Shown: positions 21,840 to 56,584 of the stretch, in pieces
Position numbering within the stretch: the stretch's first letter is position 1
Layout of the letters: each line of letters opens with the position of its first letter
Origin: Torpedo marmorata
Taxonomy: Eukaryota
NCBI GenBank assembly: GCA_977017645.1
Contig: OZ360229.1
Span: 37,758,001-37,822,000, forward strand
Length of the DNA stretch: 64,000 nucleotides
Direction: 5' to 3'
The notes under the pieces: generated by a model
The model's input: only the letters and a program-made list of their open reading frames with translations
Database searches by the model: none
What the model was told of the DNA's origin: nothing
Position numbers and translations under genes: made by a program

Positions 21840-22674
21840 GGCGGCGCTGCCGGAGCTGCTGTAATGGCAGCGCTGCCGCTGGTGCTGACCCGCAGGGAGC
21901 GAGGAGCGGAGATACAGCGCTCCCGCGGGGTCCAACCGCCCAGTCACTGCTGTCAGCTCCGCACGGGCTTTGAACGGCCCGTTAAAGGAGCCGACGGTGG
22001 TTTTATTTAAAATCCCACGACCCCGGGGTCTGCGCCCAAGATGGCAGCGCCTCTGATCGGCAGCAGCCACGAGGGGTTGCAGACTCCAGGGGAGCGGAGG
22101 ACTGGCGCAGGGCACCAGAAAACGGGGAGACCATCCCCCGTCTGAGGAGAAGCAGAGGAGACGACCCACAGGACGGTGACCACGGCGGCGGACCAGTGAG
22201 GGGCTCTGCGGCTGAAAGACCAATGCATGCGGCGGGCTGCGGGCGACTCGAGGCGAGGAACCCGTGGAGGCTGTGGGCTGCTGGAGACTGCTGTCGGGAG
22301 ATTCGCGCCGGGCTGCGGACTGCTGGAGACTGGCTCGAACTGGCTTGAGGAGTACCAGGTATCGGAACCGGGATGCGAGGGGGTGCCGAAGGCGCTGAAG
22401 GGTTCCTGACCGTGTCGGAGGTTCGGATCTGGAGCACGAGTTGCCAATGGTTTGGACTGAACTCTGTGTGGCTGCGAATGTGAATCTACGGACACTGGTT
22501 GACTCTGGGGGGACTGTCTTTTGCTTCTCTTTCTCTGACTGTAAGAGGCGCTTCAGGCAATTTCTGCCGATGGTGAATCTGTCTGCCTTACAGCAGGCAA
22601 AAGGAATTTTGTGTAATATGACACTGTTTTATTACACGACAATAAATTGAATCTTGAATCTTGAATCTTGAATC
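21840..22674 (+). mobile_element. GC-rich non-autonomous retroposon, copy 1 (~830 bp)
   Basis: Colinear with the inverted copy at 55393-56202. Internal ccaagatggc (YY1-like core) and 3' acaataaa followed by (gaatctt)n. Confidence 0.85.
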
Positions 22675-35508: not shown

Positions 35509-35624
35509 ATTGGAAGCACTATGCTAAACTATCCTTTATTGGAAGCACTATGCTAAACTGTCCTTTATTGGAAGCACTATGCTAAACTATCCTTTATTGG
35601 AAGCACTATGCTAAACTATCCTTT
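35509..35624. repeat. Minisatellite, 4 x 29 bp (attggaagcactatgctaaactatccttt)
   Basis: Four head-to-tail units with one substitution and no spacers. Confidence 0.97.
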
Positions 35625-39219: not shown

Positions 39220-39246
39220 CATTGCAGCATACGTGTGCACCAACAT
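39220..39246 (-). CDS. TFAP2B: TFAP2B alternative first coding exon (MLVHTYAAM), phase 0
   Basis: Minus strand reads ATG TTG GTG CAC ACG TAT GCT GCA ATG followed by the donor gtgagt. This matches the MLVH-type first exon of AP-2 genes and splices in frame to DRHDG of exon 2. Confidence 0.9.
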
Positions 39247-53185: not shown

Positions 53186-53350
53186 TTATTTATTTCTAAC
53201 TGAGGGAAGAATTCAGAAATCAGAGGTACATACAAGTTAGACTGCAGAGTTGATTTCCTTCCATTAAGGACAACAGTGAATCAAATGGTCTTTTCTGACT
53301 ATCTGGTTGTTACATGGTCACCAATATTGATACTAGCTTTTTATTACAAA

Positions 53351-53854
53351 CTAGCAGGATATGCGGCGTTGCCCGAGCTTTGCTCCACAATGTTGGCATA
53401 CCTCTGACATGGAGCCAATTACAATTGCATTAATGGAAGAATACTCAATGTCAACTAAGTAATTGAATGCAGCATTTATTAGCAGGTTGGCTGTAGTAAA
53501 TGGTGCTGCCCTTCGGCTGGTGGCTTTTGTTCGCATTGCTCGGAGTCTTGCTTGTTCTTCCTCAGCAGACTCTTGTTGTCTGCTCATGGAATGCCTGGCG
53601 GCATCAGCACTGAGGCGGGCTTGGTGTTGTTCCTCAGTTTCCTGCTGCCTGCTCCTTGTTTGTCTGGAGGTCTGAGCACTGAGGCAGGCCTGGTGTTGCT
53701 GTTCTGTTTCCTGCTGCCTGCTCCTTGCATGTCTGGAAGCATCAACAGTGAGGCGAGACTGATGTTCCTCTGCTATCTCTTGCTTTCTCCTTTGTCTAAC
53801 TCTACGGGCTTGTGAAGAGCTTCTGCCAATGTTGCTTCGCTTTTTTGGGCCCAT
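53351..53854 (-). CDS. Helitron RepHel N-terminal fragment ORF (167 aa): basic leader, 4 x 23-aa STPR repeats, AAFxY...IGxM..C..C motif
   Basis: MGPKKRSNIGR; repeats EIAEEHQSRL.../ETEQQHQACL.../ETEEQHQARL.../ESAEEEQARL... at exact 23-aa spacing; AAFNYLVDIEY...IVIGSMSEVCQHCGAK. The stop codon is the terminal CTAG. Expression unknown. Confidence 0.75.
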   Translation of the reverse strand: MGPKKRSNIGRSSSQARRVRQRRKQEIAEEHQSRLTVDASRHARSRQQETEQQHQACLSAQTSRQTRSRQQETEEQHQARLSADAARHSMSRQQESAEEEQARLRAMRTKATSRRAAPFTTANLLINAAFNYLVDIEYSSINAIVIGSMSEVCQHCGAKLGQRRISC

Positions 53855-54124
53855 ATTGAACTGGGTTTGGCCACTTGTTTTTATTCTGAATGTACATTGA
53901 TGCACAGCACTGTAACTAATTGAGGTGTCCCTGGTGCAAGTTCAAATTTTTTTTTGGAACTTTTGAACTTCATATGACCTTAAAGGTTAAATTCAATGTG
54001 GTCATGACATTCAGCATTAAATGTCACAATAATTATAGTAAACAGTAATGCAAGTCAGTGCATAGTAAATACTTGTATAATAAACAGTAATGCAAGTCAG
54101 TGGAAGCTGGTCAAAAAACACTTT

Positions 54125-55345
54125 CGATTTAAATTTATTCAATTTTTGCGGCGTGATATATAACTGGTTCAAAAAATTATATTGCACCAGTCTGTATCTC
54201 ACATTTATTGTATTTTTCATACTGTCCCGCATAAGTCGAACCAGTTTTGTTCATTAATTATTATATCCAAGTCTGATTCCCATATCTGTCTAGATCTATG
54301 TAGCCCCTGTTTAGGGGTTCCTTTTTGTAGTAAAAGATAGACTGCTGAAATAAACTTCATTGTGATCCCCTTTCGGATCAAAGTCTCCACTTCACTGCAT
54401 TTCGGTAAGGTCATTAATGGGCCCAATTTATCCCTTAAGTAAGATCTCAACTAGAAATAGCAGAAGAGTGTGTTGTTCATAATACCATACTTCTTTTTTA
54501 ATTGTTCAAATGACATAAGTTGTCCCTGCTCATAACAATCCTCGACACATCTGATCCCTTTCTGGGACCAGGTGTCCAGGATCTCATTATTCATTGTAAA
54601 GGGTATAAGCCTATTTTAAATGTTTTAGATGCGGCAAAGAAATAGGAACGTTTTTACATTTAACCTGGTCATGCCCCAAAGTAAAACCTTTCTGGACAGA
54701 CTTAGGGAAATTCTTAGAACAAATTACAGAAATTCAGTTCCCACAACGCCCAGAATTATTTTTATTGGGCAATATCTCCGGCGTAAGACCTAAGATGAGG
54801 CGTCAAAATTTCAAATAAAATTTGTAGAGATCGCATTGGCGGTGGCCAGGAAATGTATAGCGGTCACATGGAAGTCTGATTCCCATCTAGGTATGACAAG
54901 ATGGAATGAGGAAATGTACAGTTGTGTTCCCCTTGAGAAGATTACCTATAATCTTAGAAATAGATATGATATATTTTTAAATATTTGGACTCCATATTTA
55001 CAATATATGGCTGTAAATCTATAGCTAGGCCCCTCCTCGCCTCCAGGACCTATGTTTATCTCCTCTTTAAAAATCCGAGTAAGCCAAGTAATTTAAGCCT
55101 GCGGGGTGGACGACGAACCTCCAACGTCTTCTTTCCTTTTCTACTTCAACCTCTTCTTATTCCATTCTTCTCCTTTCTTTCTTTTAAGAGGGAACTGGGT
55201 GGGTGGGTTTTCTTTGTTTGTACTCTTGTTGTTTTTTTAGTATAATAGTCAGCATACGTATATTATATTCGATGATGTATTATTTTTGTTATTGATAATA
55301 TGTTTGGCTTTAAAAAAAATACAAATAAAATATTTAAAAAAAAAC
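54125..55345 (+). mobile_element. L1-clade insertion with 5' inversion (inverted 54125-~54617, forward ~54618-55345)
   Basis: Minus segment encodes ...FEQLKKKYGI...WESDL...LVQYNFLNQLYITPQKLNKFKS. Plus segment continues KCFRCGKEIGTFLHLTWSCPKVKPFW...LEKITY...IWTPYL, then AATAAA and polyA. TSD aaaaaacacttt at 54113-54124 and 55339-55350. Confidence 0.9.
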
Positions 55346-55392
55346 ACTTTTGAACTTCATATGACCTTAAAGGTTAAATTCAATGTGGTCAT

Positions 55393-56202
55393 CAAGATCA
55401 AGATTCAATTTATTGTCATAGTAATAAGACAGTGTCATATTCCATGAAATTTCTTTTTGCCTGCTGCAAGGCAGACAGATTCGCCACCGGCAGAAATTGC
55501 CTAAGTGCCTCTAAACATTCCTTACAGTCAGAGAAAGAGAAGCAAAAGAGAGTCCCCCCAGAGTCACCGAGTGTCCATAGATTCGCCTCCAGCGCTTCCG
55601 CAGCCACACAGAGTCCAGTCCAAACGATCGGCAACCCGAGCTCCAGATCCGAACCTCCGACACAGTCAGGTCGCCCTTGGCACCCCCTCTCATCCCGGTT
55701 CCGATACCTGGTACTCCTCCAGCCAGTTCGAGCCAGCCTCCAGCAGTCCGCAGCCCGGCGTGAGTCCCCTGATAGCAGTCTCCAGCAGCCCACAGCCTCC
55801 GCGGGTTCCTCGCCTCGAGTCGCCAGCAGCCCGCCGCATGCACTGGTCCTTCAGCCTCAGAGCCCCTCACCGGTCCGCCGCCGTGGTCACCGTCCCGTGG
55901 GTCGTCTCCTCCGCTTCTCCTTCTCAGACGGGGGGTGATCTTCCCATCCTCTGGTGCCCTGCCCCAGTCCTCCGCTTCCCCAGAACCTGCAGCCCCTCGT
56001 GGCTGCTGCCAGTTAAAAGGCGCTGCCATCTTGGGCGCAGACCCCGTGGTCGCGGGATCTTAAATAAAACCACCGTCGGCTCCCGTGCGGAACCGATGGC
56101 AGTCGACTGGGCGGCTGGACCCCGCGGGAGCGCTGTATCTCCGCTCCCATGCTCCCCGCGGGACTGCACCAGCGGCCGCTACAGCGGCAGTGCCTCCATT
56201 AC
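55393..56202 (-). mobile_element. GC-rich non-autonomous retroposon, copy 2
   Basis: Reverse complement of 21840-22674 with moderate divergence; tail gacaataaattgaatcttgatcttg. Confidence 0.85.
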
Positions 56203-56584
56203 CTTATCCAGCATCAAATTTTACCCCTACTGAACCTCCTTGGACATTTCTAGAGTGCTCCATATTGATTTGCATGGAGAACAGACAAACAGACATTCAT
56301 GCACAAATATATATTAGAAGATAGATTTGTTTAACAAACTGAATTAAACGTTGAATTCTTATCTCTGGATTATATCCTTCAGATCATACATTCTAAGAAT
56401 GCAGGTTTTGTACCTCAACTGACTAGAATACTTAGGAAACAATATTTATCATTTTTCTAAAAAACATAGAACCGTAGTAAAACAACACCTGGTATACTGC
56501 CCACAGATCTGCTCTCCCTACCCAAGGGAAGATGTGTTTGTGATCAAGCAAATGTAACAAAGGTTCTGTTTCTTGATTTCAGTG

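Follow-up and report, generated by a model that had tools for sequence, protein, structure and literature searches.

A non-autonomous Helitron of the canonical type (HLE1) lies in the window, i.e., the whole stretch of 64,000 nucleotides from Torpedo marmorata that was analysed. The element very probably goes back to one internal deletion of a RepHel Helitron, was brought to about 1,000 copies by the parent transposase and has decayed without selection since. Of a RepHel parent in the same genome, the element keeps the left end, the leader, the first 158 codons and the last 27 nt. The parent RepHel likely mobilised the short element in trans, giving about a thousand copies, as suggested by their dispersal and shared ends; after the spread, all copies would have decayed without selection. 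In Helraiser, the transposase needs the left end and the hairpin serves as terminator (PMC4778049; cf. PMC13286980). By analogy, only the two ends would be needed in cis, so the coding remnant would be a passenger.

Selection need not be invoked for an open STPR-like frame that closes on a Helitron terminus. The result is a new non-autonomous Helitron family in a cartilaginous fish with an identifiable parent, which matters little as found. The family may already be listed in the HELIANO tables (PMC11417382).

Anatomy of the window copy

The features of the window copy are collected in Table 1. Its open reading frame of 167 aa (53854->53351, minus strand) is uninterrupted and is closed by the TAG inside the terminal CTAG (53354-53351), exactly as the earlier note had described. 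That note had also taken Rep and helicase to be deleted; both are indeed absent from the window copy, whereas the parent loci continue into them. The proposed A|T target was recovered as well, with an A at 56326 flanking the 5' side and a T following the terminus at 53350. In the family, T comes next in 135 of 136 3' ends, and A precedes 92 of 105 5' ends once extra short units are removed. The claimed lack of a target site duplication is backed by clean empty sites of three other copies (L142, L166 and L225), where the element went in between A and T and left no duplication of the target. An empty site for the window's own copy was sought and none was found.

Two further hallmarks hold in part. 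The 5' TC is present, but the family start, a consensus start common to the parents, is the TC at 56318 and not 56325, which includes 7 extra nt. The terminal CTAG is there and a hairpin precedes it in the family consensus (-5.5 kcal/mol), but the hairpin is broken in the window copy, which has a different fold at -2.6 kcal/mol and a z-score of 0.70 against shuffles. From 54127 to the element end, the window copy is 97.6% identical to the consensus. A 3-nt insertion within 53378..53503 is private to it and in frame. Tandem Repeats Finder reports a period of 69 nt in the ORF region.

Table 1 Features of the window copy and of the neighbouring gene (positions in the window)
Feature	Position	Strand	Remarks
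Extra TCTA+TCT, 7 nt	56319..56325	-	Separates target A (56326) from the true 5' end; short units copy the element's first bases
Helitron left end, begins TC	56206..56318	-	First 113 nt of family consensus, 98% to family consensus
Insertion 1, 813 nt high-copy repeat	55393..56205	-	Short tandem 3' tail
Helitron 5' leader fragment	55339..55392	-	Between both insertions; part of a ~190-nt internal repeat unit
Insertion 2, LINE 3' end, 1,211 nt	54128..55338	+	5' part inverted, A-rich tail
Rest of Helitron 5' leader, up to the parent's ATG	53855..54127	-	
RepHel codons 1-25, basic start	53780..53854	-	Putatively NLS-like
Four STPR-like 23-aa repeats, aa 26-117	53504..53779	-	
RepHel residues past the repeats, ending CxxC	53378..53503	-	Parent's next CC pair deleted
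Parent's last 27 nt: hairpin + CTAG	53351..53377	-	Adds 8 codons + stop
TFAP2E first coding exon	39220..39246	-	14.1 kb from element; exon 2 starts 38640

Family size and derivatives

The window copy belongs to a large family. Of 1,675 candidates for the ORF region, 40 were scored, and among these 39 other loci are 96-97% identical over all 550 nt. The genome contains 576 exact-pattern matches to a 31-nt junction pattern (control: 0), so that the deletion junction, which the earlier note had proposed to check, is common to at least 576 copies; on this point the check came out in favour of the note. The parent-type pattern has 19 matches, and the ratio of the two counts is rough as the patterns differ in degeneracy. 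A 29-nt left-end pattern gives 710 exact matches. Since the junction pattern is matched by 10 of 18 junction-bearing copies picked via the 5' end, the 576 matches correspond to an estimated family of ~1,000 copies. Uninterrupted copies measure ~0.7-1.3 kb, their length varying with the leader repeat units.

Thirty left ends, taken in positional order, were sorted by derivative. The junction of the window copy is the commonest, with 15 cases and one probable. Five left ends join the leader straight to the helicase end and have no repeats, two break inside repeat 1, two have other breaks, one is of the parent type and four are unmapped. Derivatives without all or most of the repeats have therefore spread too (7/30). 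Subfamily structure is slight: one variant is found in 21 of 80 copies, there is perhaps one clade of three, and the rest is star-like.

The RepHel parent and the deletion junction

The PF14214 profile has 34 matches in the genome. Among 30 fetched Rep-domain loci, 17 have the same N-terminus as the short element at 87-96%, and two more carry part of it. At the point where the short element passes directly to its terminus, these parent loci run on through Rep and helicase. The PF14214 loci share the left end and the N-terminus; the right end is visible in 9 of the 19 fetched. As assembled, the parent consensus has a frame of 1,469 aa; a deletion in the reference copy makes it ~30 aa too short. 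The shared coding part (158 codons, 474 nt) shows no difference between the family consensus and that of the parent.

At the junction (53378/53377), the 158 parent codons meet the final 27 nt of the parent, which begin at the hairpin base. Past the repeats, a cysteine motif has lost its second half to the deletion. Microhomology was considered, and none is seen at the junction when family and parent consensus are compared. The retained 27 nt carry a stop in one of the three frames, and the break chanced to be in that frame, so that the ORF closes on the terminus.

Parents are 1.5-5.3% diverged from their own consensus, the same range as the short copies; the two spread in roughly the same period. 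Among the 19 fetched parent loci none is intact, the longest frame being 1,140 aa. The RepHel parent is hence likely extinct.

STPR-like repeats

The earlier note had described four exact 23-aa repeats. They are exact in length, all four being in 23-aa register and basic, but not in sequence, as only 7-15 of the 23 residues are shared between repeats. Their assignment to STPR was likewise sustained in part. The repeats are STPR-like through intermediate homologues, but no match of the family to Pfam STPR exceeds the cut-off. The window ORF gave no match to Pfam STPR (PF21107) at E<=1, and its repeat region alone reaches 8.5 bits against a cut-off of 27. Five of five open sister copies score 7.4-16.2 bits, all below that cut-off, and the window copy scores lower on the profile than its sister copies. 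The family is absent from the matches of a genome search with PF21107. Word-indexed homologue searches found nothing, and no sequence match was obtained to the solved STPR chains in PDB; STPR has a kinked helical fold that follows the major groove of DNA. A HMMER search with one sister copy (L153) yielded 289 relatives. PF21107 is matched by 19 of the top 40 of these, 16 of them over the cut-off, and three carry Helitron_like_N or PIF1.

The STPR repeat is defined by 23 residues with Glu1, Thr/Ser2 and Arg9 (PMC4856987). All four consensus repeats of the family keep these residues and Leu10; Arg6 and Arg20 are each found in one of the four, and Tyr16 in none. The N-terminus of the parent is thus a divergent STPR-like module that likely binds DNA. 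STPR in canonical Helitrons has already been published as an extra domain almost only of HLE1 (PMC11417382). In the window copy, T27I, R57C and R77H fall on repeat positions 2, 9 and 6. These changes remove Thr2 from repeat 1 (now Ile), Arg9 from repeat 2 (now Cys) and the only Arg6 among the four repeats; the position of Arg57 holds Arg in 45 of 49 homologues.

Insertions in the leader and the neighbouring gene

According to the earlier note, two later retroelements had landed in the element. Two nested insertions are indeed present, and the second is a LINE; we infer the class of the first, which is likely a non-LTR retroelement. A target duplication was looked for at the boundaries of insertion 1 and none was seen. 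The insertion has 26 matches of >150 nt in the DNA fetched, itself included, the others being 73-90% identical, and a search of Rfam families gave no match. Insertion 2 is flanked by a 15-nt target duplication (54113-54127 and 55339-55353) and has 270,044 candidates. Its relatives have both pieces joined in one frame, and one relative carries RVT_1; a Pfam search of the LINE fragments themselves gave no domain match. The LINE is presumably of the L1/Tx1 type. Both insertions sit in the 5' leader, the likely place of any promoter.

An AP-2 first coding exon does lie 14.1 kb away, close to the ~14 kb given earlier, but the gene is TFAP2E and not TFAP2B. With skate AP-2 epsilon, exon 2 shares 97% identity, against 74% with AP-2 beta of skate, which rules out TFAP2B as the neighbour, and the first coding exon corresponds exactly to the N-terminus of the epsilon record. 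The position near TFAP2E would fit a role of the window copy as cis-regulatory DNA 14 kb upstream of this gene, with the frame irrelevant, and Helitrons can spread regulatory sequence (PMC4778049). Such a role is very improbable, nonetheless, as with ~1,000 copies in 6.2 Gb some will land near developmental genes, and none of the present tests gave a sign of regulatory activity.

Selection on the open frame

Selection was assessed on copies chosen blind to the state of their frame. The first 100 of the 576 junction matches were taken in positional order, and 12 were left out as not full-span (n=88). Another 150 protein-ranked copies were not used for dN/dS, because such ranking biases against frameshifts and amino-acid changes. 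The 88 copies have a mean divergence of 2.4%; stops are found in 52 of them and frameshifts in 44, and 12 are intact. Samples picked by the 5' end contain 1/16 and 1/15 intact copies, the second sample partly overlapping the first.

The earlier note had proposed neutral accumulation of stops in sister copies as a refuting test for a mobile STPR-only family acting as a trans regulator or domestication seed. Stops do accumulate at the neutral rate, with an observed/expected ratio of 0.99 (0.61-1.33) and 36 stop-free copies against 34.3 expected, and a selected regulator is not supported. Nor does dN/dS among copies, which the note had suggested to compute, reveal purifying selection: it is 1.29 (bootstrap 1.09-1.55; rates by mutation class; junction-picked copies). 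Short indels are multiples of three in 32 of 88 cases, and nonsynonymous and synonymous changes are in similar proportion in open and broken copies (122:26 vs 554:149, p=0.37). The dN/dS is somewhat above 1 and not exactly as the neutral model predicts, probably because of few synonymous CpG sites and the subfamily variant present in 21/80 copies. The star-like structure of the family does not allow for dN/dS on internal branches. The test measures what befell copies once inserted and does not bear on selection on the source copy, which shows no divergence from the parent.

Copies of the family decay neutrally after insertion. About one copy in seven to sixteen is still open; some 60-140 copies should therefore be open, and finding one is expected. 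The window copy carries ten substitutions, nine of them nonsynonymous; with this number, a frame stays free of stops with a probability of 0.43. At 2.0% from the consensus the copy is young, which explains why its frame is open, as the null explanation of the earlier note had it. With sister copies decaying as DNA under no selection does, chance is the likely reason for the open frame, rather than a working regulator gene.

That the host has kept the window copy as a small gene for DNA binding, or as the seed for one, is hardly credible. The frame is open and the sole indel is in frame, but nine of ten substitutions change the protein, the Thr2, Arg6 and Arg9 positions are hit, and the Pfam STPR score is below that of the sister copies. 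Moreover, 2 kb of retroelement DNA interrupts the leader, the probability just given makes an unbroken frame unremarkable, and the element is not single copy, having at least 576 copies. Neutral decay, lost repeat residues and the insertions in the leader also speak against the regulator or domestication seed proposed before, as does the absence of a Pfam STPR match over the cut-off, since the earlier note had listed a missing STPR HMM match among the findings that would refute it.

A possible repressor

KP is a deletion derivative of the P element whose product of 207 aa, with 199 transposase residues, represses P elements (PMC4938643). A KP-type derivative is characterised by a truncated transposase with the DNA-binding part kept (PMC12393704). 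The transposase of the Torpedo family is truncated with the repeats kept, and these would be expected to bind DNA. It is conceivable, although unlikely, that while the family was active a 166-aa truncated RepHel bound Helitron ends and damped the parent as KP does for P elements. Such damping would have favoured the window-type derivative and helped to extinguish the family, and the present copies would be relics.

The anatomy is suggestive, with 158 transposase residues and 8 new ones against 199 of 207 in KP (PMC4938643), and Glu1, Thr/Ser2 and Arg9 are kept in all four consensus repeats. The window-type junction is the commonest derivative (15/30 5' ends, 16 with the probable one). Of 136 3' ends, 47 have an AATAAA within 20 nt past the terminus, where shuffling gives a mean of 16. 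The window copy has one too; just after the stop, it made a polyadenylated transcript possible. The lack of a full-length parent frame in the 19 fetched loci (longest 1,140 aa) would also fit, and redundant repressor copies would decay neutrally even so. Nonetheless, there is no positive sign of selection on the frame, and only half of the cysteine motif past the repeats survived the deletion. Derivatives without repeats spread as well, and closure in frame is a one-in-three event. Preferential mobilisation alone can spread short derivatives, which explains the abundance equally well (PMC12393704). No KP-like case for a rolling-circle transposon was found in the literature, of which coverage was partial. 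If true, rolling-circle transposons, too, would have self-regulation through a protein as known from KP.

Extra short units at the 5' ends

At 49 of 105 5' ends, an A and one or more extra short units (TC, TCT, TCTA, TCTAA; TCTT was also allowed) precede the element. The count excludes loci picked with a stutter-bearing query (the window's left flank); with such loci included, it was 62/109. The units copy the element's own first bases, and the same unit pattern occurs 20-40 nt further out at only 3-4 of 105 5' ends. Parents show extra 5' units too (3/11).

For 53 stuttered copies, the empty-site test gave 12 alignments, four of them clean, the rest being self-hits, microsatellites or too diverged. 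The four clean empty paralogous sites, those of copies within other repeats (L070, L087, L131 and L165), are without extra units, so the units likely arose during insertion or later. At a guess, they were made by strand transfer that aborted several times at insertion, slippage being the alternative. The extra units may thus record repeated abortive strand transfers, which bears on the annotation of Helitron left ends. No description of 5' units this short was found in the partly covered literature, including PMC5876387.

Comparison with known systems

Longer duplicated 5' ends are known from Fusarium oxysporum, where Helitrons have multiple 5' termini (PMC5148889). Like the Torpedo family, these repeat their 5'-terminal sequence but have only one 3' end downstream of it. 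In the examples given there, the duplications are 31-85 nt long and are ascribed to self-insertion, whereas the Torpedo units are 2-5 nt long.

With KP (PMC4938643), the family shares an abundant internal-deletion derivative that keeps an N-terminal DNA-binding part and adds 8 junction residues. In contrast, KP derives from a cut-and-paste transposon and its repression is experimental, while the Torpedo family is known from sequence alone and its copies decay neutrally.

The repeats resemble the STPR of Bombyx FMBP-1 (PMC4856987; PF21107) in that there are four of exactly 23 residues, and they are basic. They differ from it in scoring below the Pfam cut-off, with few Arg6 and Arg20 and no Tyr16, and the window copy has lost three key residues. 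Furthermore, the Torpedo repeats are in frame with RepHel, whereas HELIANO (PMC11417382) puts most extra domains in separate ORFs.

In build, the family resembles wheat Xuan1 with its Feng parents (PMC13286980) and the HLE1 families in HELIANO (PMC11417382). The 5' TC and the 3' hairpin with CTAG are the same, insertion is between A and T without duplication, the termini are shared with an autonomous parent, and short copies outnumber parents. Unlike those systems, the Torpedo family has no intact parent found, which is therefore likely extinct, and about half of its 5' ends carry an extra 2-26 nt of TC/TCT/TCTA units. It further differs from them in keeping 158 transposase codons as an open frame in the consensus.

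Insertions and neighbouring gene in the window

The non-autonomous Helitron copy carries the 3' end of a LINE from a very large family. The 5' segment of this LINE is inverted, and its target duplication measures 15 nt, a combination that is the pattern of twin priming. The neighbouring gene, called TFAP2B in the earlier note, turned out to be TFAP2E (AP-2 epsilon). The coordinates are compiled below together with those of further features.

Features located in the window
Feature	Position	Remark
AATAAA in the 3' flank of the Helitron copy	53340-53345	
Extra 5' units of the Helitron copy	56319-56325	
LINE 3' end	54128-55338	
Second copy of the 813-nt repeat	21872-22663	84% identity
Tandem repeat	35509-35624	29-nt x 4
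TFAP2E	39246-39220 and 38640 downward	minus strand

Other derivatives and distribution of the parent

Further deletion derivatives of the same RepHel parent, with different joints, were found in the genome (loci L248, L250, L251, L253, L270; L258, L260, L065, L086; L257; L266; L138, L139), and some of them lack the N-terminal frame entirely. Rep-bearing parent copies are clustered in a few chromosomal regions (G000, the T. marmorata genome: C22 97-101 Mb, C31 171-181 Mb, C25 4-16 Mb), whereas the short copies are dispersed. The same parent is also present in contigs of sequencing runs X1, X3, X6 and X7, which are labelled as other organisms, as judged by comparison with the parent locus L136:900-6050. 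One of these contig copies is almost at consensus. The copies in these runs display other deletion joints, most of them putative.

Separately, an open frame of 248 aa with about seven regular STPR repeats lies at locus L140:1360-2103 (G000:C77, 38.19 Mb). It scored 51 bits on PF21107, being the sole match to this model in the genome search, and is unrelated to the Helitron family of the window; it may belong to a host gene or to another element.

Sequence preferences at the Helitron ends

At 49 of the 105 5' ends of the family, short extra units (TC, TCT, TCTA or TCTAA) separate the target A from the true start, against 3-4 in the control. Their combined length does not exceed 26 nt. The empty paralogous sites of four copies (L070, L087, L131, L165) are devoid of them. 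No description of such short 5' extra units of Helitrons was found in the literature searched. At locus L150, two copies are arranged head-to-tail; the left end of one directly follows the CTAG terminus of the other, with TCTA extras between them.

Past the 3' terminus, the flanks of 136 copies exhibit a strong target bias, A7-T8-A9-A10 being present in 110, 102, 105 and 98 of them, respectively. Because of this bias, AATAAA occurs in 47 of the 136 flanks. According to PMC4778049, an AT-rich 3' bias was already known for Helraiser.
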